Virus genome (UHGV): UHGV-0297898
Strand: one strand, 5' to 3'
Source of the DNA: a virus
Length of the DNA stretch: 12,053 nucleotides
Below, in pieces: positions 1-12,053 of the stretch. The position numbers were made by a program, and so were the translations under genes. Within the stretch, counting starts at the first letter, position 1; each line of letters begins with the position of its first letter. The notes beneath the pieces are model-generated. The model was not told the origin of the DNA. It was given only the letters and a program-made list of their open reading frames with translations, and made no database searches.

Positions 1-170
1 ACAATGTATTTCGACACCACATGCGCCAGAAGTCTGACGGACTCATCCTGATTCATCTGGTAGGGATACCCCAGCTCGCGGACATCCTTCCCGGTGGGTT
101 CATCAAACTCCAGTACGGAGAGTGTCTCGCCATGAGCGATAATCGGTTTCTTTAACTCAAGCTCTTTCAT
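1..170 (-). CDS. Phage tail assembly chaperone, N-terminal part (runs off window start)
   Basis: Minus-strand ATG at 170..168 overlaps the tail tube stop (TAATG). Translation MKELELKKPIIAHGETLSVLEFDEPTGKDVRELGYPYQMNQDESVRLLAHVVSKYI remains open to position 1. Position directly after the tube gene and the L.L..PI..GE.L..L.F.EPT..D pattern fit tail assembly chaperones. No start-containing ORF in the track because it is truncated by the window edge. Confidence 0.45.
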   Translation of the reverse strand, partial: MKELELKKPIIAHGETLSVLEFDEPTGKDVRELGYPYQMNQDESVRLLAHVVSKYI

Positions 171-526
171 TACTGGTAATCCCCTTCTTCACCGTGGAAC
201 TCAAGATCAACCGTGCCTTCTTCGGCATTATGGTTCGCTTCGCCGTGCAGCCAGGCGGACGACAATACATAGACCTGACCGTTCGCCAGCTCGGCAGTGA
301 TGGTCATCTCATCAGACGAGGTGATTTTGCTCACCGGAAAATTCTTCGGCACCTTGAAGGTCCCTTTGACATAAGGCGCACGGTGAGTTTCCTTGCGGTC
401 CACTGAACCGTCCAGGCCGATGATGTCATCATTGACCGTCCTGTTCATGGGCACCTCAATGCCGCCGGTCAGCGATAGCTGCTGACCGTCAATTTTGAAA
501 TAACAGGTTCCCCCGATACGGGCCAT
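170..526 (-). CDS. Phage tail tube protein (contractile-tail type)
   Basis: 118-aa ORF, ATG at 526..524, immediately downstream of the sheath gene with 1-nt stop/start overlap (TAATG). Size and position are typical of a myovirus tube protein. Family assignment is from recall of Mu/P2-type tube proteins. Confidence 0.75.
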   Translation of the reverse strand: MARIGGTCYFKIDGQQLSLTGGIEVPMNRTVNDDIIGLDGSVDRKETHRAPYVKGTFKVPKNFPVSKITSSDEMTITAELANGQVYVLSSAWLHGEANHNAEEGTVDLEFHGEEGDYQ

Positions 527-2019
527 TATGCAGACTCCTCTGAATACTGAAGACGGAACTGGTTAACCACGGCAAAGACACGCAACTGGTTAACATAGTC
601 AGGCGGGAACAGCGTGTTCAGGCGGTTCGGATCGCTGGCATCACGCTCCACAACCAGGTACTGCTTAAACAGTTCGTAGTTTTCCACGATCCCCGCACGC
701 TCAAGCTGACGGTAGGTTGTCAGCAGTTCCCCTTTGATCACCGCCGGGGTGACAATCGCCTGACCGGGACCAAAGCGGGTACCGTCGCTGGCAAGCTTGT
801 GACGCCCGTACTTACTGGTAATGACGGATTTCAGTTTGCGCAGTACATACGCACTGGTATACAGCGTCTCGCTGTCGAGATAGCTGTTATCCGCAACCCC
901 GTAAGCGTTTTTCCTGTACGTGGTGACATCACGCTGAATGCGCAGTACCCCGCTTTCGACATACGCCGTTGCCACGCCATGAGACAGCAGGGTCTGTTGT
1001 TCGGTCATCGTGAACCGTTTCCCCTTCGGCGCAGGCAGCATACCCACCAGCTCACCGGTCTGCGTGGGACGTGCCGGATCGTTGCGGATAAACACCGCTG
1101 CGCGGGCGGTACGGCTTGCCGCCAGCTCATCGGCAGGCGTCTGGGTGTCTTTTTCGTACCCCGCCAGGGTAATGTGCTGCTGGTTAAACTGGTCACCTGC
1201 GGTCACCAGTTCTGACAGCGTGCCGATCTTTGCCGTATACACATGACCATACAGCTGACGCGCATAGCTCCAGCGACCGCTGGTATCGTTCATCTCGGTC
1301 ACCAGCGTGTTAACGGAGGCCGTGTCGTTGAACGGCAGGCCGATATAATCAAACGGCTCATCCGCCATTGCAGCCACCGCGCCGGTGAGAACCGGAGCAC
1401 CCGTTCCGGCGGTACCCGTCGCCACGGCAATCTGTACGCCCGCTGGCAGCACTTCGCCCCCACCAAAGCCGTAGTAATTGAGGCTGACAGGAATTTCATT
1501 CCCGCAAAGCCCCTTATGACGCGCGGTCAGTGTGACCACGCCAGCCGAAGATGAGGCCGTAAACGGCAGGGCCGGAACGGCATTGATGGCATCCTGGATA
1601 CTGCTGGCAATCGTCGCAACGTTATCGCCGTTGGTCACCGGTGCCTGCACGCGGGTACGTCCCACATAAACATTCACCGTGCCGCTTTCGGTTGCTTCCC
1701 CGGTCACCGTCAGCGTAACCGTTGCCGCCGCGCCTGTGGCTTCCGGAACGGCAATCACATACAGCTCACCAAACGGGTCGGTCTGGCGATAAGCCTCGAC
1801 CATACGCGCCAGCTGACTTCCCGCACCACAAATCTGGCGTGCATAGTCTGCCGATGGCATCAGCACCAGACTGTTGGCAACAATCTCTGCACCGTTATTG
1901 GCATGACCAATCAGCAGCGATGCTCCGCTGTCCTGTGCAGTATTCGCCGCCGAGTTATCCATTTCCGCATAAAAAATCGGAACCAGCGTATTTGACGGAA
2001 TGGTGTTAAAGCTCGTCAT
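526..2019 (-). CDS. Phage tail sheath protein
   Basis: 497-aa ORF, ATG at 2019..2017 preceded by AGGTG Shine-Dalgarno at about 7 nt. Length and sequence character fit contractile-tail sheath proteins of Mu-like tails; followed directly by the tube gene. Confidence 0.8.
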   Translation of the reverse strand: MTSFNTIPSNTLVPIFYAEMDNSAANTAQDSGASLLIGHANNGAEIVANSLVLMPSADYARQICGAGSQLARMVEAYRQTDPFGELYVIAVPEATGAAATVTLTVTGEATESGTVNVYVGRTRVQAPVTNGDNVATIASSIQDAINAVPALPFTASSSAGVVTLTARHKGLCGNEIPVSLNYYGFGGGEVLPAGVQIAVATGTAGTGAPVLTGAVAAMADEPFDYIGLPFNDTASVNTLVTEMNDTSGRWSYARQLYGHVYTAKIGTLSELVTAGDQFNQQHITLAGYEKDTQTPADELAASRTARAAVFIRNDPARPTQTGELVGMLPAPKGKRFTMTEQQTLLSHGVATAYVESGVLRIQRDVTTYRKNAYGVADNSYLDSETLYTSAYVLRKLKSVITSKYGRHKLASDGTRFGPGQAIVTPAVIKGELLTTYRQLERAGIVENYELFKQYLVVERDASDPNRLNTLFPPDYVNQLRVFAVVNQFRLQYSEESA

Positions 2020-2173
2020 CGGTATTCACCTTTTCATTCACGCGCCGGATATCACCCGCTGCTTCACGGCGCAGCCAGTAGTTGTTCTCGTCAACATTTC
2101 GCCCTTCGGTGGGCAAAAGGTCACCGCGGGCAGGGTCAGGCACTGACCGCCCTTTAACAGGTTTCACAAACAT
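2006..2173 (-). CDS. Small hypothetical ORF (55 aa) in the gap before the sheath gene
   Basis: Hand translation from ATG at 2173..2171: MFVKPVKGRSVPDPARGDLLPTEGRNVDENNYWLRREAAGDIRRVNEKVNTDDEL, stop TAA at 2008..2006. Starts 8 nt after the stop of the upstream 186-aa gene and overlaps the sheath start by 14 nt. No strong SD; not in the ORF track (below its length cutoff). Could be a real small virion-assembly gene or just the spacer. Confidence 0.25.
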   Translation of the reverse strand: MFVKPVKGRSVPDPARGDLLPTEGRNVDENNYWLRREAAGDIRRVNEKVNTDDEL

Positions 2174-2181
2174 GAAGATTC

Positions 2182-2742
2182 TCAGGAAGGAAGGGTTATT
2201 TCGGTGTGATGTTCGATATCGCCGTCAGGCCCGTTACCGGGATCGAGATAATCAACATCAATCGCCAGCGTTTGCAGTTCATCCAGACTGTTCAGATCAT
2301 CCTGCTGGCGGGTATCGTCTTCAGTCAGCTCGCTGATGACCGAAAAATCGAACTGATAAATCAGCTCATGACGATTCAGATCCAGCAGCGTGCCGCCGTC
2401 ATAGGTAATCGGGTTACCGCACGCCTCCGGGTTCCAGCCCAGCAGAGCCTTAAAGAGCATCTGCCGGACATCGTCCACCACATCATACGAGGCAAACTGA
2501 CCGCGCTCATCACGCCCGTTACTCAGTATGACAACCACGGAGAAACCCTCTTTCAGCTCCTGCCAGTAGTCGGTCTGGCTTTTGTTTTCTCCCGGAGAAT
2601 CATCACCCGGTACAACATATGCCGCAGGGAGTTTCAGCTTTCCGACCTCCGGCAGATTTTTGAACTGGGCCGCGCCTGCAACCCGGTATTCAAAATACGG
2701 ACAGCGGGCACGCAGTGCAGCAATAACAGGCGTCAGTTTCAT
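2182..2742 (-). CDS. Putative neck / tail-terminator (tail completion) protein
   Basis: 186-aa ORF, ATG at 2742..2740 overlapping the stop of the gp10-like gene (ATGA). Position between neck genes and sheath. Central region resembles the tail-terminator fold (compare lambda gpU region ...YLTGAEYTGEELDSDTWQAELHIEVF with ...YVVPGDDSPGENKSQTDYWQELKEGFSVVVIL). Acidic C-terminal tail. Function call is tentative. Confidence 0.5.
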   Translation of the reverse strand: MKLTPVIAALRARCPYFEYRVAGAAQFKNLPEVGKLKLPAAYVVPGDDSPGENKSQTDYWQELKEGFSVVVILSNGRDERGQFASYDVVDDVRQMLFKALLGWNPEACGNPITYDGGTLLDLNRHELIYQFDFSVISELTEDDTRQQDDLNSLDELQTLAIDVDYLDPGNGPDGDIEHHTEITLPS

Positions 2743-3245
2743 CTGTGTCGTCGCTCCGGCTTCAGTGATTTACGCAATTCCCGCGCCAGAAAATAGCGTG
2801 TCCAGCTGCGGTTCTTTTCAAGCGTTTCCACCATGAAGTTATTACGTGGAGCCAGTCGCCAGCCGCTGCCACCGGATGCACCACGATGATGGCTGCGACG
2901 ACGCTTTGCCCCTCGCCTCACGCCATAGAACAAAAAAGCCGGATAAAAATCACCGGTGATACGGCGGTTTCCCTCTCCATTACGCTGGTTAGGGGCTATA
3001 CGTGCCATAAAACCAGGGCGATGTTTACTGGCTCTGGGTACCATGTAACCAATCGAACGAGCCAGGCGTCCGGTCTGATAACCGGGGTTTTCACCCGGTG
3101 CCGACCGCGCACGGCGCATCACCAGCCGACGGGCATCACGCATATGACGCTGACCAATCGTGACAAACGCCCGCCGGACACGGGCGCGGTTAAAGCGCAT
3201 CTCCGCGGGCTGCTGAAAATCAACGTGCAAAAAGGAAGTCGTCAT
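2739..3245 (-). CDS. HK97 gp10-family virion protein (tail-completion / neck)
   Basis: 168-aa basic protein, ATG at 3245..3243 with strong GGAGG SD 5 nt upstream. Contains ...ARIAPNQRNGEGNRRITGDFYPAFLFYGVRRG..., typical of the HK97-gp10-like family. Overlaps the preceding gene's 3' end by 26 nt. Confidence 0.6.
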   Translation of the reverse strand: MTTSFLHVDFQQPAEMRFNRARVRRAFVTIGQRHMRDARRLVMRRARSAPGENPGYQTGRLARSIGYMVPRASKHRPGFMARIAPNQRNGEGNRRITGDFYPAFLFYGVRRGAKRRRSHHRGASGGSGWRLAPRNNFMVETLEKNRSWTRYFLARELRKSLKPERRHR

Positions 3246-3630
3246 TGTTGCCTCCGTGACTCTGCCTACATTCGCCCAGCTCCGTACACTCCAGCAGCAG
3301 AAAGCGCCGCGCCCCGTTCAGATCGCGCTGACGTTTCACCCGGTACACACTGTCACCGCAGACCACCTCATAATCAGCGGTGATCCCCCGGCGGTAACGA
3401 ATGGTGATGTAATGGGTGATGGCGTCCCCGGTCTGCGCGGTTTCCTGCCAGGTGGTGGCACTGGTCTGGATAACCTTCGCCCATGTCCGGAACGTAACCG
3501 GGTATTGAGGCTCCACGCCAAAGTTATCCGCGGGCATATCCACCCGCAGGCGGATCAGGACGCGTTTATTCAGTTCACCGGGGTCCGGCAGAATGTAGGT
3601 TGCGCTGGTCTGCGCCTGACGAATTTTCAT
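3220..3630 (-). CDS. Head closure / head-tail adaptor protein (HK97 gp7-like)
   Basis: 136-aa ORF, ATG at 3630..3628 overlapping the connector stop (ATGA). Sequence (MKIRQAQTSATYILPDPGELNKRVLIRLR...RFLLLECTELGE) and position after the gp6-like connector fit the head-tail joining family. Confidence 0.6.
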   Translation of the reverse strand: MKIRQAQTSATYILPDPGELNKRVLIRLRVDMPADNFGVEPQYPVTFRTWAKVIQTSATTWQETAQTGDAITHYITIRYRRGITADYEVVCGDSVYRVKRQRDLNGARRFLLLECTELGECRQSHGGNNDDFLFAR

Positions 3631-3950
3631 TGCGGAAAGTACCTGTACGGGCCGACAAGCCAGCCAAAACTCTGCGGCATGTCGAGTTTCTCCACTTCCG
3701 TAACCGACGAGCGGTTTTCGTAAAAATGGCTGATAAGCATCAGCATCCCCAGACGAATATCATCCGGCAGGTGCAGCCCGTCCGGATCGCTGTCCGGAAT
3801 GGTTTCATCCGGTGCATAGAGCTTCCGGTTCAGATACGTTTCCGTCCGCTTTTGTGCCGCATAGGCCAGCAGTTGCAGATGGCGGTCATCAGCATCGAAA
3901 TCCTCATCCAGCCGGAGTTGGGCTTTAATCTCTTCCATTGTCAGAAGCAT
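3627..3950 (-). CDS. Head-tail connector protein (HK97 gp6-like)
   Basis: 107-aa ORF, ATG at 3950..3948, 2 nt after the stop of the upstream 66-aa ORF. N-terminus MLLTMEEIKAQLRLDEDFDADDRHLQLLAYAA is characteristic of gp6-like connector / DNA-packaging proteins. Confidence 0.65.
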   Translation of the reverse strand: MLLTMEEIKAQLRLDEDFDADDRHLQLLAYAAQKRTETYLNRKLYAPDETIPDSDPDGLHLPDDIRLGMLMLISHFYENRSSVTEVEKLDMPQSFGWLVGPYRYFPQ

Positions 3951-3952
3951 AC

Positions 3953-4153
3953 TCAGCCCTCTTTACTGGTCGTGGCTTTTTTCTCTTTTGTCGCTTTACT
4001 GCTTTTTGCACTGGTTCCGCGCTCTGCTAACCCGGCCTGAAGTGCAACCTCCTGCACCCGGGCAGGAAGCGCCCCGTCGTCATACTCACCGGCCCGAATG
4101 ACCTCAACACGCATACCGTCCGGTGACCATTTCAGATCTTGTTTCAGGATCAT
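3953..4153 (-). CDS. Hypothetical small protein (66 aa) with Lys/Ser/Thr-rich C-terminus
   Basis: ATG at 4153..4151; sits between major capsid and connector genes; tightly packed with the downstream gene (TGAgtATG). No recognisable family. C-terminal tail SAKSSKATKEKKATTSKEG is low-complexity and basic. Confidence 0.4.
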   Translation of the reverse strand: MILKQDLKWSPDGMRVEVIRAGEYDDGALPARVQEVALQAGLAERGTSAKSSKATKEKKATTSKEG

Positions 4154-4172
4154 GATTCTTCACCCATCAGAA

Positions 4173-4196
4173 CAGGGGCGCGGTTCCGCGCCCCTG
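4173..4196 (-). terminator. Perfect 10-bp GC-rich hairpin just downstream of the major capsid gene (possible partial terminator or RNA stability element)
   Basis: Plus strand CAGGGGCGCG-gttc-CGCGCCCCTG (10 bp stem at 4173-4182 / 4187-4196, 4-nt loop) lies 6 nt after the capsid stop at 4202. On the transcribed strand it is followed by TTCTGAT, only a weak U-tract. Confidence 0.4.
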
Positions 4197-4201
4197 AGTG
4201 A

Positions 4202-5407
4202 TTACGCCACTGCAATCTTCAGCAGTTTGATGGCCTGCGAATCGACCAGCATGCCGCCGGTGCGTTTGGTGGTATAAAAACCGACAAACGGTTTATTGGT
4301 GTACGGGTCACGCAGAATGCGGGTGCCGATACGGTCAACGATGGTGTAACCCCGTTTGAAGTTACCAAATGCAATGGCTTTCGCATCAGCGGCGATATCC
4401 GGCATCTGTTCGTTTTCAGCGATACCGTAACCCGCCAGAGAGGACGGCTGCCCCAGTTCCAGCCCCGGACGCCACAGATAGTTACCCTCGGTGTCTTTCA
4501 GCAGACGGATGGCAAACAGGCTGTTGTTGTTCATCATGAACTTCGCGCCAGTGCGGTGTGCCTTTCGCAGCGTGTAAATCAGTTTGATAATGGCGTCTGC
4601 GGTCACCGCAGTCGCGTCGCCGGATACAATATGCTGAAGTTTGCCGAACGCCCGGACCTTATCGGTTTCATCCGTGGATTCATACGCCAGGAACCCTTTC
4701 GGCTTCTTGGTACCATCGCCGGTGGTAAAGGCAATTTCTTCCTGTTCGGCAAATTCGGTTGCCAGCTCGCTGTTGATCCAGGCCTCCACGTTGAAAAAGG
4801 CATCATCCAGCATTTTCTGGGTGGCCTGCGGGTTACCGTAGATTTCCCCCATGAAAGGTTCAATCAGCCCCAGTTTTGAGGTGGCAGTTTGGGAGCGCGC
4901 GTCAGTCTCGCCAACCCATCCGGAAGCCGTGCCGCCCAGATTCACCAGTTTTTTGTAGTCGGAACCACCAACGGTGATCACCGTGGCTTCCTGACGCATC
5001 ACCACTTCATCTTTCAGCAGGTTAAGAATGTTGCGATCCAGTTCTTCCGGCACGGCGTAGCCACCGTCTTCATCGGTGCCCACCTGCAATGCCTTACGCT
5101 CCAGATCGCGCAGACCGTCTTCACGGCCTTTACGCAGGAAGCCCACAAACGCCTCTTTATGCTCGGTGGCCAGTTTATTTTGCGCACCACCTGCCGGACG
5201 TTTCAGCTCAAGCAGCTCTTTTTCAAGATCGCTTTTGAGGTTTTCCAGCTCGCTGAGTTTCCCGTTCAGGGTTTCCACCTGCCCGGCAAGTTTGCCTTTT
5301 TCCTGCTCAATCGCATCCACGCGCTTGTCGTTCTTTGCTTTGAAGTCGTCAAACTTCTGCTGCAGCTCCTGCGCGACCTGTTCGACATCTTTAATATCAA
5401 CCGCCAT
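4202..5407 (-). CDS. Major capsid protein, HK97 fold, with N-terminal coiled-coil scaffolding (delta) domain
   Basis: 401-aa ORF, ATG at 5407..5405 with AGGAG SD 7 nt upstream. N-terminal about 100 aa is strongly coiled-coil (…KLSELENLKSDLEKELLELK…) as in HK97 gp5 delta domain, followed by a capsid-like body. Located directly after the prohead protease. Confidence 0.9.
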   Translation of the reverse strand: MAVDIKDVEQVAQELQQKFDDFKAKNDKRVDAIEQEKGKLAGQVETLNGKLSELENLKSDLEKELLELKRPAGGAQNKLATEHKEAFVGFLRKGREDGLRDLERKALQVGTDEDGGYAVPEELDRNILNLLKDEVVMRQEATVITVGGSDYKKLVNLGGTASGWVGETDARSQTATSKLGLIEPFMGEIYGNPQATQKMLDDAFFNVEAWINSELATEFAEQEEIAFTTGDGTKKPKGFLAYESTDETDKVRAFGKLQHIVSGDATAVTADAIIKLIYTLRKAHRTGAKFMMNNNSLFAIRLLKDTEGNYLWRPGLELGQPSSLAGYGIAENEQMPDIAADAKAIAFGNFKRGYTIVDRIGTRILRDPYTNKPFVGFYTTKRTGGMLVDSQAIKLLKIAVA

Positions 5408-5421
5408 CGTATTTCTCCTGA

Positions 5422-6057
5422 TTAGAAGTTCAGATTTTTCAGTGCATTCAGTGCAGAGCCCACATCCTCAGCGTCGCGCAGGGACAGTGCGCCATAGCCC
5501 CCGGCCATGAATGTCGACCTCTGGGAAGTCAGTCTGGTGACGTTTCCGTCTAACGACGAGGCGCGGATCAGCGACGTCAAGAACGCGCTGGCCCGCGGGG
5601 AAATCCCCGAACAGAAAAAAATCGAAAGAGTCCTGCGTGATGTCGGACTCTCCCGTTCTTTCAGCAGAAAGGCTTCTTTCGTCTGGTCGTATTCCCAGTC
5701 CTTCAGGACGTACCCAATAGAAAGGCCGGTTAACGAACCGGCCTTCATGTGTGCATGTGCGCGTTTTGCCAGAGGATCATCATCAATGAGCAACCGCCCC
5801 CTGACGTAAAGCCCGACATCGTCTTCCTTCATTTCGGTGTAAACACCGATGGGCTCATCCATGCGGTGCTGCCAGAGCAGCGCAGGTAACGCTTTTCTGT
5901 CACTCCACGCCCGCAGGGAAGCAGCAAATGCCCCGGACATCACCACATCATCGTGGCTGTCCTTTACACCAAAGACGGAGCCATACCCTTCAAACTCACC
6001 GGAGTCACTGACAGATTTCAGACTCAGCGGTACATCAAGACGTTGTTTCGTCTGCAT
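5422..6057 (-). CDS. Prohead (head maturation) protease, HK97 family, with C-terminal region disrupted by a local inversion
   Basis: Catalytic-domain sequence …GEFEGYGSVFGVKDSHDDVVMSGAF…ALPALLWQHRMDEPIGVYTEMKEDDVGLYVRG…GLSIGYVLKDWEYDQTKEAFLLKE is typical of the family. Preferred start is ATG at 6057..6055 (AGAAGGA SD 8 nt upstream), not the track's ATG at 6093 which has no SD and overlaps the portal gene by 59 nt. After LLKE the minus-strand frame reads 48 residues of low-complexity sequence (RESPTSRRTLSIFFCSGISPRASAFLTSLIRASSLDGNVTRLTSQRST) before resuming a plausible C-terminus; the expected motif is on the opposite strand (see feature 5512..5656). Confidence 0.7.
   Translation of the reverse strand: MQTKQRLDVPLSLKSVSDSGEFEGYGSVFGVKDSHDDVVMSGAFAASLRAWSDRKALPALLWQHRMDEPIGVYTEMKEDDVGLYVRGRLLIDDDPLAKRAHAHMKAGSLTGLSIGYVLKDWEYDQTKEAFLLKERESPTSRRTLSIFFCSGISPRASAFLTSLIRASSLDGNVTRLTSQRSTFMAGGYGALSLRDAEDVGSALNALKNLNF
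5512..5656 (+). other. Inverted segment inside the protease gene: plus strand encodes the conserved protease C-terminal motif
   Basis: Plus-strand translation across this segment is (N)VDLWEVSLVTFPSNDEARISDVKNALARGEIPEQKKIERVLRDVGLSR, the canonical L.EVSLV..P.N.EA.I C-terminal strand of HK97-family prohead proteases, while all flanking protease sequence is on the minus strand. Re-inverting 5512..5656 (or 5513..5655) gives a continuous minus-strand ORF …AFLLK(D/E)VDLWEVSLVTFPSNDEARISDVK…GLSRFMAGGYGALSLRDAEDV…. Boundaries are approximate to within a few nt. Confidence 0.6.
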
Positions 6058-7276
6058 TGGCGTTATCCTTCTGCTTACCGGCTTTACTGCCATCGGAGGG
6101 TTTCGTGGTCATGTTCATCGGTGTGAGATAGACATCCCCACCGGGACGCGGATTCATATCTTCCAGGTCGCGGCAGTCATTGGGAGAGTAAATTCCCCAG
6201 TTAATCCCGGTGGCGTAGGCTTCAAAACGGGACTTCATATCCCCGCGCAGTAACGCCCCGGCGTTAAATTTGGCGTAATAAACGCCCTGCTTACTTTTTC
6301 GTACCAGTCCGGTGTTGATCCGCTGTTCGATGCGGGTCAGATACGGCACCAGTGAATAGTTGATAAATCCGAGCCCCAGTTCTTCGATATTGTTGAAGGT
6401 GGCGCGATCGGTGTTCTGCACCATGTGCAACGGTACCCGGAACAGACGACAGATTTCTTCAAGCTGAAACTTGCGGGTTTCCAGGAACTGGCTGTCCTCG
6501 GCGTTCAGCGCCATCGACTTCCAGTCCAGCCCCATCTCAAGGATCATCGGGCGGTGAGCATTGCCAAGCCCGGTGTGACGCTCCTCAAAATCTTTCTTCA
6601 GGCGCTCATAAGCCTGATCTGACAGCGTCTGCTCTGTACGCAACACACCCGACGTCACCGCACCATTGCTGAACAGTCTGGCCCCGTGCTCTTCAGTCGC
6701 TGCCGCCAGCGATATTGCCTCGCGGGCATAGGCGACGGGATTCAGCCCCACCAGTCCGTCCAGCGTCAGCGTGCGCACATGCCAGATATCCTCCTGGCTC
6801 AGCACATCCGTGGAGCCGTCCGGGAATGTGACCTGATAGACCGGCTCCCAGCTACTGTTAAGCTTCGGTACCACACAGCCGGGATCGACGGGCAGCAGTT
6901 CAGCCACTTCGCCAAATGCTTTCACTTTGTAGGCGTAAAAGTTTCCCCGCAGGCACAGACAGGTGACCACCAGCTCCCAGAACTCCTGCGGCGTCATATA
7001 GCCATTGGGATGCGTGGAGATCAGCTTATGCAGACGTTCGCCGGTGGCCCTCTGTTTCAGGCTGCCGTTCAGGTGATACAGATTGCAGGGCAACATCCCG
7101 ACCGACTCTGCCAGCACCCTGACGCAGGAAAAAACCGCCGTCAGTCGCATGGCCCGCTGGCTGCTGATCTGCTTTCCGGTATAGGTGTCATATGACAGCC
7201 CGATAGCATCCGCCAGCTCTGCTGGCGTGGTCACCGGCGCGTCACTTTTTCGTTGAAATAATCCCGAAAAGAACAC
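6035..7276 (-). CDS. Portal protein, HK97 family
   Basis: 413-aa ORF. Start is GTG at 7276..7274 with strong GGAGG SD 6 nt upstream; its G overlaps the TAG stop of the upstream small ORF (TAGTG). Length and content (…EEICRLFRVPLHMVQNTDRATF…) fit HK97-type portals; positioned between terminase and protease. Confidence 0.85.
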   Translation of the reverse strand: MFFSGLFQRKSDAPVTTPAELADAIGLSYDTYTGKQISSQRAMRLTAVFSCVRVLAESVGMLPCNLYHLNGSLKQRATGERLHKLISTHPNGYMTPQEFWELVVTCLCLRGNFYAYKVKAFGEVAELLPVDPGCVVPKLNSSWEPVYQVTFPDGSTDVLSQEDIWHVRTLTLDGLVGLNPVAYAREAISLAAATEEHGARLFSNGAVTSGVLRTEQTLSDQAYERLKKDFEERHTGLGNAHRPMILEMGLDWKSMALNAEDSQFLETRKFQLEEICRLFRVPLHMVQNTDRATFNNIEELGLGFINYSLVPYLTRIEQRINTGLVRKSKQGVYYAKFNAGALLRGDMKSRFEAYATGINWGIYSPNDCRDLEDMNPRPGGDVYLTPMNMTTKPSDGSKAGKQKDNANADETTS

Positions 7277-7458
7277 TATTTACCTCCGCCGACAGACGAC
7301 TGTGTACGGTCAAGATATCGCGCCACCAGCCACGACCAGAACAGGCACAACGCCCCGGCAACAACAAACCCCGCCGGGGGATAAATCAGCCAGGCACCAT
7401 ACGCCAGCAAAAGCGCCCCCAGCACGCCCACCAGAGGCGCGAGAATCAGCATGATCAT
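7276..7458 (-). CDS. Small predicted membrane protein (60 aa, two hydrophobic helices)
   Basis: ATG at 7458..7456 with GAGGT SD about 5 nt upstream, 11 nt after the terL stop. Sequence [60 protein letters not shown] is almost entirely hydrophobic. Exactly fills the gap between terL and portal with coupled stop/start. Confidence 0.45.
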
Positions 7459-7469
7459 AATTACCTCAG

Positions 7470-9203
7470 TTAAAGCGAGCGGATCCCATAGGACTCAATG
7501 TGGTCAGACAACGTGTCTTCTTTCTCGTACAGCATGGCTCTGCCAACCGCCATAATCAGCGCAACTGCACCATCGATTTTGTTTTCCGCCTGCTCTTTAA
7601 CGGGCTTCACCACATCATCGTTACCCGGAATGGTTTTGCCGACCACGTTGCCGATACACCAGGTCATGATGGGATTGCCATCATGATGAAAGCGCCCCGA
7701 TTCAATTGCCGCTTCCAGCTCTTTCATCGGGTCGGACATGTTGGTGTAGTTCTGAATGATAGTGATGGGGTTCAGGTCTTCATCAGCAAGGTCATGTGAC
7801 AACCCGGTCGCCCCGAAGGGGTCGATGGGTGACTCACTGACCGGGCTGATTTTGTTCGCCGCTTTGGCCTCCTCGAGGATGTAGCGATAATCCACCTCCG
7901 CACCATCGGTAACGGTCAGAACGCCCATTTCCACCCATTTCTGAAAGCGTTCGGCTGTCCGTCGATCTTCATTTTTCTCGACGCTGTACACCGTGTCATA
8001 CGGTACCCAGAAACGCGGGGCCACACTGTAGTAATGCGTTTTACCGTCAATCTCGCGGGTATAAAGTCGCGCCATGCTGTTCATATCCAGCTTACGCGCC
8101 AGGTCAAAGGCCAGAATGCACGGCTGCCCCTCGAACTGCTCAAGGGTCAGTGATTTATCCTCGCAGCTCTGCCAGCTCACCAGGTTGAAATACGCCGAAC
8201 GCGCCGACACCCAGATATTGAGGTGTTTTGTTTTAAAGACGTTTGCCAGACGGGCGTTATTTTTCGCACGCTGCTGCTGACTTAACAAAAATTCGCGATA
8301 AACCGACACGCCAATATTTGGATTGGCTTTTTCCAGCACCTGCGGGTCGGTCCAGTCGTCACCTTCATCAACGGTATAGATGATCCCGAACAGTTCATCG
8401 TTAGGCACCGAGCCGTTGAGCATCTCGATGACTTCCCGCCGTTTGTCGTAGCACGGCCCCTCAATGTTGTACCCGGCGGTAGTGATAGCCCACATCAGTG
8501 GCTGACGTCGCGCCCCCATCCCGGTAAGCATCGTGGTGTAAAGCGCATCTGTGGCGTGCTCGTGATATTCATCCACCACCGCACAGTGGGGTGATGAACC
8601 ATCACCGGGGTTACAGATCAGCGGTTCAAAACGCGCACCATCCTCCGGACGGTTCATGTTTGAGGCGTTAACCTCAATCCCGAACGCTTCCGTCAGCATG
8701 GGTGTGCGTTTACACATCAGTCTTGCCGGACGAAAGACTTCCCATGCCTGTTTCTCCGTCGTGGCACCGGAATACACTTCCGCGCCGAACTCGTTATCAC
8801 AGGCAAAACAATACAGGGCGACACCGGCAGAGATTGCCGATTTGCCGTTCTTACGGGGGATTTCGGTATACACCTCACGGAAGCGGCGCAGCCGGGAGCC
8901 TTTATTGACCCAGCCAAACGCGCAGCAGATCACAAAGAGCTGCCACGGCTCCAGCGTGATGGGCATCCTCTTAAATGCCCACTCACCCTTGGTGTGCGGC
9001 AACAGCTGAATAAATTTCGCGGCCCGTTCAGCCAGGTCCTTGTCGAAGCGGTAACGAAACGACTTACTTTTTTCCTCCATTAGGTCATCAAGATGGCGCT
9101 GGCAGGCCTGAATCACAAACTGGCAGGCCACAATCTTTCCGCGCACGACATCACGGGCATACTGATTGGCAGCATTTACGTTGGGGTAAGATTTCCGGCT
9201 CAT
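7470..9203 (-). CDS. Terminase large subunit
   Basis: 577-aa ORF, ATG at 9203..9201 overlapping the terS stop (ATGA). Contains Walker A-like PRKNGKS and Walker B-like CAVVDEYHE motifs in the N-terminal ATPase region; followed by the portal gene. Confidence 0.9.
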
Positions 9204-9694
9204 GATTCGATGATTTTCAGAAACGGGTTAGTGGCTTTCTTCTGCCCCGCCAGGCCAATCAGACGCTGGCGGCTGCTGGGGTCGAGTCCGAGCATTGCCC
9301 CCGTACTGCTCATCTCGGACTCCTGTTCTTTTTTGGCGGTCAGCTCCGGATTTTTGACCATACCGCCCATTGCACCGGTGATGGTGTTGCCCTGTCTGGC
9401 AATATTTTTCACGGCACGTCGCCAGAACTCGTAGGCCACGCACCACCGCTCAAGCACCGCGAGGTCAGTCACGCACAGCAGGCCCTGACCGCAGAGTTCT
9501 TTAGTTGTCAGTTGCCACATGATCGTAGCGAGAGGGAGATCTTCTTCAGCGAACCACTCCGGTGGCTCAACACCTTTGATGGGCGTAAAAACAGGTTCAT
9601 CTTTATTCAGGGCTCGCTTGCCGGGGTTTCCGGCCAGCGCCTTGCGCGCCGTTGGCTTGGGGCGACGCCCGGAACGCCCCGCCGTTCCAGCCAT
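9200..9694 (-). CDS. Terminase small subunit (P27-family-like)
   Basis: Preferred start is ATG at 9694..9692 (AGGAG SD 8 nt upstream), giving 164 aa beginning [36 protein letters not shown]. The track's start at 9703 is a GTG that lies inside the SD. Basic N-terminus and position upstream of terL fit terS. Confidence 0.8.
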
Positions 9695-9730
9695 ATGCGG
9701 CACTCCTGGTTAAATTTCATTTTTCGCGGG

Positions 9731-9800
9731 TATAAAAAAACGATGGGGCGGGCAGTCCGGAAGACGTCAGGCCGCAGGGATTTGACCCGCCCCTCCCCTC
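9731..9800. other. Candidate cos / terminase recognition region: A-tract plus GC-rich 8-bp inverted repeat
   Basis: GGGGCGGG (9745-9752) and CCCGCCCC (9786-9793) form an inverted repeat separated by 33 nt that contains a GACGTC palindrome; an A7 tract lies at 9734-9740. Located in the 125-bp HNH-terS intergenic space, where cos sits in HK97-like phages. The start GGGGCGGGCAG loosely resembles GC-rich lambdoid cohesive ends. Placement is positional inference only. Confidence 0.3.
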
Positions 9801-9819
9801 AGGAAGTTGAGAATCATTA

Positions 9820-10170
9820 TCACTTCAACCGTTCACGGGCCGTCTTCGCCTTATGACACGGCCAGCACAGACTCTGCAGATTACAGTCGGCATCAGTGCC
9901 GCCATGCGCTTTAGGGATGATGTGGTCAACGGTTTTCGCTTCACGCACCACACCGGCACGCAGACATAACTGACATAAACCTTTGTCACGTTTCAGTACA
10001 CGTTCACGGATAGCATCCCATTTCGAACCGTAGCCGCGCTGATGACGGGATTGTCCTGGCTTGTATTGCTTCCAGCCTTCGCTTTTGTGGCTTTCGCAGT
10101 AGCCTGACGGGTCAGTAGTGGTATGGCGGCAGCCGCGAACGCGGCAGGATTTTGGGATTCGTGGTGGCAT
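9820..10170 (-). CDS. HNH endonuclease (terminase-associated)
   Basis: 116-aa ORF, ATG at 10170..10168. Cys-rich N-terminus (CRVRGCRH…CESH) and C-terminal HNH motif DHIIPKAHGGTDADCNLQSLCWPCHKAK. Lies immediately upstream of terS, the arrangement of HNH-dependent cos-packaging phages. Confidence 0.85.
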   Translation of the reverse strand: MPPRIPKSCRVRGCRHTTTDPSGYCESHKSEGWKQYKPGQSRHQRGYGSKWDAIRERVLKRDKGLCQLCLRAGVVREAKTVDHIIPKAHGGTDADCNLQSLCWPCHKAKTARERLK

Positions 10171-10195
10171 TGAAGAAAACTCTTTGTAATAAGCA

Positions 10196-10218
10196 TAAAA
10201 ACCCCATATTGAATGGGG
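10196..10218 (-). terminator. Rho-independent terminator-like hairpin downstream of the moron ORF
   Basis: On the minus strand: CCCCAT-tcaat-ATGGGG followed by TTTTTAT (plus-strand stem 10202-10207 / 10213-10218, A-tract 10196-10201). Sits about 10 nt after the stop of the 168-aa ORF and just upstream of the HNH start. Confidence 0.45.
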
Positions 10219-10227
10219 CTTGATGAA

Positions 10228-10734
10228 TTACTGTCCTAAAGCACTTTTTGCCAATATTGAAGCAATTGAAGCAAACGTCGGATTTTCCAATAGCTTTTGC
10301 CAAAGGCTTTTAACCTCTGGATCATTGCAATGCTCTATAGCATCATGTAGTTGTTGAATGGTTATATTCTTTGTGATCGAATTATCATTACCGGCTTGAA
10401 AATCACCACCAGCATTAATAGCACCGTTAAACGTCAAATGGGTCGTAATCTGCTTCGGCTTCTCTTTTACATCCAATGCCTTCACTATCAATACCGCCAA
10501 ATGTGAGTAGCCAGGGCAACCAACCTCGAGACTAATTTGCACCTCGTAATCAAGCACTTCAAATAGTCTTTCCCTGTCGACCATTTTTTGCACAATGATA
10601 TCGCCGATATTAAATGGGCATAAGTCACTTTCAATAGGAATATACAATCGGCCTTTAGATGAGTCACGTTGACCATAATAGGTGGATGAATTAAAGGTAA
10701 AAGTATCTGGATAGAAAAATTGATCTGGTCTCAT
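10228..10734 (-). CDS. Hypothetical protein (168 aa) encoded in an AT-rich moron island; function unknown
   Basis: ATG at 10734..10732 with weak AAGGGA SD. Protein MRPDQFFYPDTFTFNSSTYYGQRDSSKGRLYIPIESDLCPFNIGDIIVQKMVDRERLFEVLDYEVQ… has no signal peptide or TM segment and no motif I can assign. The gene and its flanks are visibly AT-rich compared with surrounding phage genes, and it has its own promoter-like and terminator elements. Confidence 0.6.
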   Translation of the reverse strand: MRPDQFFYPDTFTFNSSTYYGQRDSSKGRLYIPIESDLCPFNIGDIIVQKMVDRERLFEVLDYEVQISLEVGCPGYSHLAVLIVKALDVKEKPKQITTHLTFNGAINAGGDFQAGNDNSITKNITIQQLHDAIEHCNDPEVKSLWQKLLENPTFASIASILAKSALGQ

Positions 10735-10819
10735 AATAGTCCCTTTTGTGTTTTGTGGATATCTCCATTAATTAGACTATTACTTTATCTCTTTTCCCAA
10801 ATACATACATTCAAAATTA

Positions 10820-10860
10820 AGAGCATTATCACAGATAATTTCGAAGCGATATTGCAATGC
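10820..10860 (-). promoter_or_regulatory. Candidate sigma70 extended -10 promoter for the moron ORF
   Basis: Minus strand reads TGTGATAAT (plus 10825-10833), an extended -10 element, about 90 nt upstream of the moron ATG in a 200-bp AT-rich spacer. A TTGCAA at 10852-10857 is too far (21 nt) to be a canonical -35, so this would act as an extended -10 promoter. Pattern-based only. Confidence 0.3.
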
Positions 10861-10938
10861 CTACCCATGACCTGTATTCAACGAATACGTATCAGAGGAA
10901 TACCTTGTTCGTTATCTACATGACGATAAAAATATACA

Positions 10939-11187
10939 TCAATTTTGATTATCAATGATTCTGATATCTGACTTATCCCTATTACATTGAGCCAACGCGG
11001 ATAACAAACTTACATTCAAATCAAGACTTGCACCATACGTCAGTGGGTTGGGTATAAACGGTACAGGTGTATCAGAAGTCAAGCTGACTGGTAGTGGAGT
11101 CTTCGGAATGCTCACGTAAACTGTTCGCGTACTTCCACAACCGGTCAGCAGCGGCAGCAGGCACAGGGCGTACAGCACAATCATCAT
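10939..11187 (-). CDS. Rz1-like outer-membrane lipoprotein (o-spanin)
   Basis: Internal ATG-ATG at 11187..11182 within the track's longer ORF gives MMIVLYALCLLPLLTGC…, a lipoprotein signal with lipobox LTGC. Mature part is proline-rich (PKTPLPVSLTSDTPVPFIPNPL), typical of Rz1. Starts inside the Rz gene in the +1 frame and runs 133 nt past the Rz stop (overlapped rather than embedded). Confidence 0.6.
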   Translation of the reverse strand: MMIVLYALCLLPLLTGCGSTRTVYVSIPKTPLPVSLTSDTPVPFIPNPLTYGASLDLNVSLLSALAQCNRDKSDIRIIDNQN

Positions 11188-11464
11188 CCGCAACAGCCAC
11201 TTTGATATCAGCCTGGGTTCTCTGTGACTCCAGTGCGATCTGCTGTTTTGCATGCTGGTTAGCCTCCAGAACTGTATTGACGATTTGCAGTGATTGCAGG
11301 ACGTTATTGGTAATAGCGGTTGCCGATTCGGCATTTTGTACAGCCTCATCAGCACGTTTCTTTTCGCGCTGGTATTTGCTGTGGTAGTGGTTAGCTGACC
11401 AGACGAGAGAACCGAATAAAGTCAGGAGGAAAGCAGAAATAACCAGCTTATAGCGAAGTTTCAT
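11072..11464 (-). CDS. Rz-like inner-membrane spanin (i-spanin)
   Basis: Preferred start is ATG at 11464..11462 (MKLRYKLVISAFLLTLFGSLVW…), giving 130 aa; the track's start at 11497 is a TTG. One N-terminal TM helix followed by a charged, coiled-coil-like periplasmic domain; located directly after the endolysin gene. Confidence 0.7.
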   Translation of the reverse strand: MKLRYKLVISAFLLTLFGSLVWSANHYHSKYQREKKRADEAVQNAESATAITNNVLQSLQIVNTVLEANQHAKQQIALESQRTQADIKVAVADDDCAVRPVPAAAADRLWKYANSLREHSEDSTTSQLDF

Positions 11465-11924
11465 TAACCACCCCGCCAGCTTCTTTGAATTTGGCAATCA
11501 GACTATCGATCTTGTGTTCATACTGACCGTAGCCAGCACCGGGCAATGAAGCCCAAATATTGCTGCAACGGTCGATTGCCTGACGAATATTGCCACGGTC
11601 AATCATCGGTAAAGCGCCACGCTCTTTAATCTGCTGCAGAGCTACAGCGTCCTGGCTTTCTGGAGAAAAATCTTTCAGGCCAAGCTGTTTACGGTAAGCA
11701 TCCCACCAGCGTGAAAGAAGCTGGTAACGTCCGGCGGCTGTTGACTTGAGTTTCGGGTTTAGCGTGACAAGTTTGCGAGGGTGATCGGAGTAATCAGTGA
11801 AGAGTTCACCACCGACAATAACGTCATAACCGTGGTTACGTGTCGGTTGTCGTCCGTTATCCGTTCCTTCTGACCAAGCCACCATATCAAGGAAAGCTTT
11901 ACGCTGGGAATTTAGTACCTGCAT
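11448..11924 (-). CDS. R: Endolysin, lambda R-type lytic transglycosylase
   Basis: 158-aa ORF, ATG at 11924..11922. Near-identical over most of its length to phage lambda R as I recall it (…QRKAFLDM.AWSEGTDNGRQ.TRNHGYDVIVGGELFTDYSDHPRKLVTLNPKLKST.AGRYQLLSRWWDAYRKQLGLKDFSP…), differing mainly at the extreme N- and C-termini. Confidence 0.9.
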   Translation of the reverse strand: MQVLNSQRKAFLDMVAWSEGTDNGRQPTRNHGYDVIVGGELFTDYSDHPRKLVTLNPKLKSTAAGRYQLLSRWWDAYRKQLGLKDFSPESQDAVALQQIKERGALPMIDRGNIRQAIDRCSNIWASLPGAGYGQYEHKIDSLIAKFKEAGGVVNETSL

Positions 11925-11927
11925 AAA

Positions 11928-12053
11928 TTACTCCTTAGAGCCACCAAATTTGTTACCGATTACTCGCATTGCAGCCCCACGAATAGCATCGACACCGATC
12001 AGCCCCACCCCACCACCAATGGCAACAGATAGTGATTTAGGCCATCCGACATA
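11928..12053 (-). CDS. Putative holin, C-terminal 41 codons (gene continues beyond window end)
   Basis: Hand translation of the minus strand from the window edge: …YVGWPKSLSVAIGGGVGLIGVDAIRGAAMRVIGNKFGGSKE, stop TAA at 11930..11928, 3 nt before the endolysin ATG. Gly-rich hydrophobic segment followed by a short basic tail and the position immediately upstream of the endolysin fit a holin. Not lambda S-like. Confidence 0.45.
   Translation of the reverse strand, partial: YVGWPKSLSVAIGGGVGLIGVDAIRGAAMRVIGNKFGGSKE

Follow-up and report, generated by a model that had tools for sequence, protein, structure and literature searches.

Does the 12,053 bp stretch of virus genome UHGV-0297898 described here (the window, at its full length) encode the late functions of a temperate phage, of which type, and are those functions intact? 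The evidence points very strongly to the late operon of a temperate myovirus of the SfII/SfI/SfIV type, within the SfV-like phages, that is integrated in Escherichia coli and has a disrupted prohead protease gene. In megablast comparisons with phage genomes the window shares 99.8% DNA identity with Escherichia phage vB_EcoM-689R6 (ON470584), and over the parts that align it is 97.5% identical to SfII, 97.3% to SfI, 97.1% to SfIV and 96.9% to SfV; the alignments with SfII (NC_021857), SfI and SfIV span ~9.8 kb at 97.1–97.5%. Five complete E. coli chromosomes carry a prophage that is 99.97% identical over 12 kb, and at least 80% of the window is carried by 812 of 5,426 complete E. coli genomes (~15%, roughly one in seven). 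The best E. coli match, a prophage referred to here as L001, has a Q antiterminator gene upstream of this region and a tape measure gene and a Mu N-like gene downstream. Nothing was found that contradicts the identification of the region.

An earlier note on this DNA had tentatively placed it with the SfV-like phages, and the BLAST searches and gene-by-gene synteny comparisons with SfV and HK97 that it proposed have now been run, confirming an SfV-like identity and the HK97 gene order. The placement holds in that DNA identity to SfII, SfI, SfIV and SfV is 96.9–97.5%, but SfV's own portal, protease and capsid genes are different. The portal-protease-capsid block in the window is of the SfII/SfI/SfIV/ST64B type and not that of SfV (26–28% protein identity), and the true type relatives are SfII, SfI and SfIV. 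SfI, SfII and SfIV have portal, protease and capsid proteins that are >90% alike and very unlike those of SfV, all being of the HK97 family, and all four phages are myoviruses by electron microscopy with an identical cos site and terminases (PMC3851460). The mosaic of HK97-type head, Mu-type contractile tail and lambda-type lysis genes is already published, having been known since the SfV genome, and this prophage type is very common in E. coli; as a region it adds no new biology, the disrupted protease gene being its one unusual element.

Gene order and orientation

All of the long open reading frames (ORFs) in the ORF map of the window are on the minus strand, and G+C content is 53–59% throughout, with the exception of a dip to ~40% at 10.0–11.5 kb. 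In the order of transcription, from 12053 to 1, the genes (assigned to families using Pfam, PHROGs and NCBIfam) are those for the holin (partial), endolysin, Rz with Rz1 inside it, a low-GC ORF of 168 amino acids (aa), and an HNH endonuclease; these are followed by cos within a 125-nt gap, terS, terL, a 60-aa membrane protein ORF, and the portal, S78 protease and capsid genes. A 66-aa ORF then precedes the genes for the adaptor, head closure, Neck1, tail terminator, DUF2635, sheath, tube and tail assembly proteins.

The packaging and head genes that the earlier note had listed on an HK97 pattern are thus all present, with portal, capsid and protease matching HK97-family models, and the contractile tail genes lie beyond the neck genes as it had described. 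Sheath or tube matches to non-contractile tail proteins were not seen, and neither were head genes of a non-HK97 lineage. Its account of co-directional genes with overlapping stop and start codons also stands: there are three ATGA overlaps (terS/terL, adaptor/head closure, and Neck1/terminator), two TAATG overlaps (sheath/tube and tube/assembly protein), and a single TAGTG overlap (60-aa ORF/portal), an arrangement suggestive of translational coupling. An Rfam scan identified no RNA families in the window, and promoter-like and terminator-like sites were counted in it at about the level of shuffled sequences.

An inversion within the prohead protease gene

In both the phage and the E. coli genome searches, the best matches align to the window in two pieces. 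Relative to L001 (by BLAST), positions 1–5513 and 5656–12053 are colinear, with 5514–5656 (143 bp) matching the opposite strand at 100% identity; in place of 157 nt of the reference, the window has the reverse complement of 142 of those nucleotides. One junction lacks 1 base and the other 13–14, which makes 15 nt net with a junction ambiguity of 1 nt, and the same flip with the same breakpoints is present relative to SfII, ST64B, phiP27 and a European Nucleotide Archive (ENA) contig, L139, discussed below. The protease named in the earlier note does belong to the S78 family, but the gene is not intact, and the inversion with its deletion had been missed.

The protease of intact relatives is 216 aa in length. 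In the window, residues 135–186 of 216 (52 residues, IDLWEVSLVTFPSNDEARISDVKNALARGEIPEQKKIERVLRDVGLSRTQAKA) are swapped for 47 unrelated residues and the C-terminal 30 residues remain in frame; the ORF stays open, since a loss of 15 nt preserves the triplet phase and the antisense frame now read is free of stop codons. Of the three possible antisense frames, two are open in the inverted segment, and between 14% and 65% of comparable antisense windows across the head and tail genes are open, depending on the frame. Open antisense frames are therefore common, and the open protease frame following inversion is unremarkable.

The Peptidase_S78 profile (165 positions) matches the intact gene from 6 to 158 at 111 bits, whereas the match to the window copy ends at 124 with 78 bits (cut-off 21). 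Profile positions 133–158 recur in a spurious plus-strand ORF (5507–5809) bearing the displaced DLWEVSLVTFPSNDEARISDVK motif. Membership in the family holds, but the window copy lacks a complete S78 domain as a result of the inversion. The residues aligned to His65 and Ser114 of HK97 gp4 (41% identity over 103 residues) are retained, and the conserved L-x-E-V/I-S-x-V-T-F-P motif is lost; BLASTP gave no match to the SfV protease.

No solved structure was found for the protease by sequence. An intact homologue was modeled with AlphaFold (pLDDT >80 across most of the domain); here residues 129–143 make up a long core strand, with helices at 147–161, 168–177 and 182–190, and the model matches the T4 prohead protease gp21 (5JBL; E = 1e-6) across the whole 164-residue target, followed by herpesvirus proteases. 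Placed on this model, the inversion is predicted to cost the catalytic domain half of a core strand and some three helices. Judged from the family profile and the model, the protease would have lost its activity if the sequence is faithful. The rearranged ORF nonetheless still scores as an 'HK97 family prohead protease' although it is probably non-functional, such that tools based on gene content would call this prophage intact.

A very recent mutation or a sequence artefact

The inversion may be an inactivating mutation of very recent origin, or it may be a sequence artefact, and the chances are about even. The second of these, an error in assembly, sequencing or data handling that conceals a real prophage with an intact and functional late operon, has by our estimate slightly less than an even chance. 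Several observations support it and weigh against accepting the window as an E. coli prophage whose protease gene is disrupted. The inverted arrangement is absent from all 1,045 complete E. coli genomes holding this stretch, and the 128 related loci that were fetched all have the normal arrangement. Neither junction has an exact match in the GTDB species representatives, IMG/VR or the JGI metagenomes, and the normal junction is present in at least 120 IMG/VR viral contigs. The altered protease, in two start variants, is absent from a collection of 15 billion proteins. The inverted piece shows no age, being 100% identical to the reference. The breakpoints also suggest no mechanism and offer no recombination substrate: an exhaustive search near the breakpoints, together with a repeat search on the reference, found no inverted repeats of 7 nt or more that bracket them, and microhomology amounts to 1 nt at most. 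With no bracketing repeats and so little microhomology, repeat-mediated recombination, an invertase switch and classical quasipalindrome template switching were all rejected.

A further observation of this kind comes from a sister contig. If the rearrangement is set aside, only four bases separate the window from the best E. coli match, 720 (A434T in the sheath), 4889 (synonymous, capsid), 8615 (G197C in TerL) and 12030 (synonymous, holin). The alleles at 720, 4889 and 8615 are found in none of 38–110 relatives, with that at 12030 being less rare, and the A434T sheath protein is absent from the protein collection. The exact G197C TerL occurs there once, on ENA contig ERZ27272630 k141_78311 (L139; 14,319 bp), which shares the window alleles at 4889, 8615 and 12030 and is therefore a true lineage-mate. 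L139 is the sole contig with the rare alleles of the window, yet its protease has the normal 216 aa and it does not differ from the reference across the 157-nt segment; the rearrangement must therefore have arisen after the lineage markers or be an artefact.

L139 also presents two coincidences. The contig ends at window position 721, one base from the private single-nucleotide polymorphism of the window at 720, and it has a private polymorphism of its own at window position 5511, which is 3 nt away from the breakpoint of the inversion.

Against an artefact, a clean 142-bp inversion with a loss of 15 nt is not typical of assembler errors, and the alleles of the window lineage are genuine, since they are common to the independent contig L139. 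Other, independent lesions of the same protease gene are present in rare public assemblies, and defective copies may thus be real. These include in-frame deletions of 13 aa and 38 aa, a compensated double frameshift, and fusions to the capsid or head-closure genes (homologues P0070, P0072, P0144, P0071, P0081 and P0073), and they may stem either from prophage copies in decay or from errors of assembly.

Should the lesion be real, an otherwise perfect prophage has been grounded by one illegitimate rearrangement, and the event is recent, as the sister contig is still intact, making this a dated example. By a modest reading, to which we give somewhat under an even chance, the window records the earliest inactivating event in the domestication of a prophage within a gut E. 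coli population. This is far more likely than a second proposal, itself very unlikely, that builds on the His and Ser region and the C-terminal 30 residues kept by the chimeric protease. The C-terminal part of HK97 gp4 is reported to direct the protease into the prohead as it assembles (Duda et al. 2013); by analogy, the chimeric protease could be co-packaged as a dominant-negative subunit when related phages, superinfecting or co-resident, build their proheads, and block their maturation, which, if true, would give a grounded prophage an exclusion function.

It is still less probable, to the point of being hardly credible, that the region is a domesticated particle-producing element of the host, such as a gene transfer agent (GTA) or a tailocin, in place of a phage late operon. 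The best match of the capsid among solved structures is the Rhodobacter GTA capsid (6TB9) and not HK97, and the region is widespread in E. coli chromosomes. However, the 6TB9 match reflects common HK97-family ancestry (the capsid scores 387 bits with TIGR01554), the presence of head genes excludes a tailocin, and cos, terS, HNH and a full lysis cassette are all kept; moreover, the region is 97–98% identical to SfII, SfI and SfIV, phages that have been induced, plaque-purified and imaged. Finally, the idea that the inversion is a programmed, reversible invertase-type switch of the protease, and hence of virion production, is effectively refuted, as nothing more than the inverted segment and its open reading frame speaks for it, there are no flanking inverted repeats (the breakpoints bear no relation to the longest repeat nearby), neither the window nor the adjoining 3 kb at each side in the reference prophage contains an invertase gene, the loss of 15 nt makes precise reversal impossible, and a single orientation is seen in the 128 relatives and 1,045 genomes.

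Features of the late operon

Coordinates of the genes and other features of the window, in order of transcription, with the matches that identify them.
Feature	Coordinates	Strand	Identification
Holin gene, C-terminal 41 codons (cut by window edge)	11928..12053	-	SfV S 97.6% identity; lambda-family holin annotation in E. coli prophage
Endolysin, lambda R type, 158 aa	11448..11924	-	lambda lysozyme 1AM7, E = 7e-97; SfV R 94%
Rz-like spanin, 130 aa	11072..11464	-	SfV Rz 78% identity; weak DUF2570 match; annotation in relatives
Rz1-like lipoprotein spanin, 82 aa, embedded in/overlapping Rz	10939..11187	-	SfV Rz1 77%; LysC/Rz1 annotation in relative
Low-GC (~40%) inserted gene, 168 aa	10228..10734	-	GC dip; phrog_5789 (family without assigned function)
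HNH endonuclease, 116 aa, adjoining cos	9820..10170	-	PF01844, E = 5e-15; SfV orf53 93% identity
cos region, virion genome ends	9745..9762	-	SfV record ends; phiP27 cos motif
Small terminase subunit, P27 family, 164 aa	9200..9694	-	PF05119 and TIGR01558; SfV terS 99.4% identity
Large terminase subunit, 577 aa	7470..9203	-	PF03354 and PF20441; SfV terL 97% outside last 20 aa
YmfR-like membrane protein ORF, 60 aa	7276..7458	-	phrog_502; ymfR annotation in relative
Portal, 413 aa, GTG start	6035..7276	-	PF04860 (360 bits); TIGR01537 portal_HK97
Prohead serine protease (S78) gene, disrupted, 211 aa from annotated ATG	5422..6057	-	Peptidase_S78 PF04586, partial match
Inverted 142-bp segment, 15 nt of reference lost at junctions	5514..5655	.	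BLAST against L001, SfII, ST64B, phiP27 and L139
Major capsid protein, 401 aa	4202..5407	-	TIGR01554, 387 bits, residues 6-398; PF05065 from residue 115
66-aa ORF	3953..4153	-	phrog_1020, family without assigned function
Head-tail adaptor Ad1, HK97 gp6-like, 107 aa	3627..3950	-	PF05135, phrog_40; SfV orf6 62% identity
Head closure Hc1, gp7 position, 136 aa	3220..3630	-	PF05521, phrog_25
Neck1/tail-completion, HK97 gp10 position, 168 aa	2739..3245	-	phrog_879; SfV orf8 98% identity
Tail terminator, 186 aa	2182..2742	-	PF23840; SfV orf9 98% identity
DUF2635 protein, Mu gp38-like, 55 aa	2006..2173	-	Mu gp38 39% identity, E = 4e-12; PF10948 in relatives
Contractile tail sheath, 497 aa	526..2019	-	PF04984, PF17481, PF17482; SfV sheath 98% identity
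Tail tube, 118 aa	170..526	-	PF10618, E = 2e-33, 115 bits; phrog_185; SfV tube 100% identity
Tail assembly protein, first 56 codons (cut by window edge)	1..170	-	SfV orf13 96% identity; annotated in relative

The portal scores 259.6 bits with the TIGR01537 equivalog model (cut-off 112) and shares 32% identity with HK97 gp3 and 28% with its SfV counterpart. The capsid is ~26% identical to each of the SfV capsid and HK97 gp5, and 114 residues precede its Pfam domain, including an N-terminal delta (scaffold) domain encoded by codons 1–105 (window 5093–5407). Only 14 nt separate the protease and capsid genes, and there is therefore no scaffold gene between them. In an alignment of five sequences made with MAFFT, tentative at ~26% identity, the HK97 delta cleavage site K103|S104 aligns with K105|A106 of the capsid, the predicted cut. 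In the same alignment the HK97 crosslink residues are not kept, K169 corresponding to R171 and N356 and E363 falling in a segment that the capsid lacks, and HK97-type chain-mail crosslinking is therefore doubtful.

Two small ORFs accompany these head genes. The 60-aa ymfR-like ORF is shared with SfII, ST64B and phiP27, and the SfV record has none annotated; within it is a strong, GC-rich hairpin (7440–7413), the counterpart of which is labeled a putative terminator in the SfII record. The 66-aa ORF lies between the capsid and adaptor genes and its product has a C-terminus rich in Lys, Ser and Thr. It is present in SfII and ST64B and is not annotated in SfV or phiP27, and it therefore travels with the SfII-type head module.

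The cos site can be placed between HNH and terS, since the two termini of the SfV record meet at window 9761/9762, with the following 67 nt identical, and the motif TGCCCGCCCC is 1 nt different from the annotated cos site of phiP27. GP74, the HNH protein of HK97, helps TerL to cleave cos (PMC9410871). The window TerL matches the crystal structure of HK97 TerL (6Z6D) with E = 1e-24; the G197C substitution noted above aligns to a non-conserved Ala in this structure, and there is no evidence that it is damaging.

SfV-like DNA similarity stops ~60 nt ahead of the terL stop codon (the terL 3' end, 7470–7530). Residues 1–557 of TerL are 97.8% identical to SfV, whereas the window, SfII and ST64B share the same last 20 residues, which match 19 of 20 in phiP27 and have 30% identity to SfV. 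The tail of TerL thus travels with the portal gene and its module. The C-terminus of lambda gpA is known to dock at the portal, and co-segregation of the TerL tail with the portal fits such a role for the TerL C-terminus.

In the neck, the head closure protein is 99% identical to SfV orf7 over the 98 aa annotated in SfV. Neck1 has neither a Pfam match nor a BLASTP match to an HK97 gp10-family protein. The DUF2635 protein is 94% identical to SfV orf10, and its gene is directly upstream of the sheath gene, with a 14-nt overlap. The sheath aligns with Mu gpL over its full length (36% identity in 499 columns, E = 6e-88); the tube has no direct BLASTP match to Mu gpM at E < 0.1, and the ST64B record notes a similarity of its tube to gpM. 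The Mu-like tape measure, N (DNA circularisation) and baseplate genes are beyond the window and are present downstream in L001 and SfV.

In the lysis cassette, the endolysin, described in the earlier note as nearly identical to lambda R, is close only, with 91.6% identity to lambda R (PDB 1AM7) and 13 mismatches in 154 aligned residues. The Glu of its AWSEGT motif aligns with lambda Glu19, the catalytic residue, and is retained. Despite this identity, no Pfam-A or NCBIfam family was assigned at the thresholds used, which is a gap in profile coverage and no biological oddity. The LLTGC motif of Rz1, read directly from the sequence, is a lipobox.

The 168-aa low-GC gene between Rz1 and HNH has no counterpart in SfV, and vB_EcoM-689R6 carries it at the same place. 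A terminator-like hairpin (10221–10199) is directly 3' of its stop codon. The product has no match in Pfam, NCBIfam or PADLOC, and its homologues form 22 clusters from Escherichia, Serratia and metagenomes. In another prophage the gene occupies the equivalent slot behind a different lysis cassette, and a Serratia homologue adjoins a primase gene; being found in different phage contexts, the gene evidently moves independently. In an AlphaFold model a beta domain at the N-terminus is confident and is followed by a disordered linker and by helices at the C-terminus; Foldseek comparison of this model with the PDB gave no significant fold match, only generic small beta-barrels and helices.

A predicted assembly pathway

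By comparison with annotated relatives, a Q-antiterminated late transcript would run from right to left through the window, expressing the holin, the lambda R-type endolysin and Rz/Rz1 for lysis, and then the low-GC gene. HNH, TerS and TerL would cut at cos between the HNH and terS genes. If the head is built as in HK97, the portal would nucleate the capsid shell, with the delta domain of the capsid protein itself acting as scaffold, and the S78 protease, packaged within the shell, would remove the delta domain by a cut predicted after K105, permitting DNA packaging. The adaptor, head closure, Neck1 and terminator proteins would then join the head to a Mu-type tail composed of the gp38-like protein, sheath and tube.

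The HK97 protease has to strip Prohead 1 of the delta domain before DNA is packaged (PMC12749128). In the window copy, the protease inversion would by analogy halt assembly at the stage of uncleaved proheads, and this copy of the prophage would give rise to no infectious particles, provided that the sequence is faithful.

Comparison with related phages

The closest relatives of the late operon are SfII, SfI, SfIV and vB_EcoM-689R6, which agree with it in gene order and content between terS and the tube gene, in the lineage of portal, protease and capsid, and in the cos region. They differ in the protease, which is intact and 216 aa in length in these phages, and the gene for which bears the 142-bp inversion and 15-nt deletion in the window.

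SfV (NC_003444) has the same overall architecture, with an HK97-type head and a Mu-type tail, and its terS, terL, Neck1, terminator, sheath and tube products are 97–100% identical to those of the window. DNA identity varies sharply by segment. It is 88% in the lysis genes (10980–12053), 91% in HNH (9762–10170), 97% in terS and most of terL (7531–9761), and 95% from the adaptor to the tube (1–3951), whereas the low-GC gene and its flanks (10171–10979) are absent from SfV, and there is no DNA similarity across the terL 3' end, 60-aa ORF, portal, protease, capsid and 66-aa ORF (3952–7530). The left boundary of the SfII-type head module is thus inside terL.

HK97 shares the order terS, terL, portal, protease, capsid, gp6, gp7, gp10 position and terminator, as well as an HNH gene adjoining cos, with 25–32% protein identity and no DNA similarity. 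The window terS is of the P27 type, unlike that of HK97, and HK97 has a lambda-like siphovirus tail in contrast to the contractile tail genes of the window. The order terminator, gp38-like, sheath and tube is that of the Mu tail module (gp37, gp38, L and M), although there is no DNA similarity to Mu, and the head, packaging (pac/headful) and transposition biology of Mu are unrelated to this phage. Lambda has the same S-R-Rz/Rz1 gene order, with R differing by 13 substitutions and at its termini.

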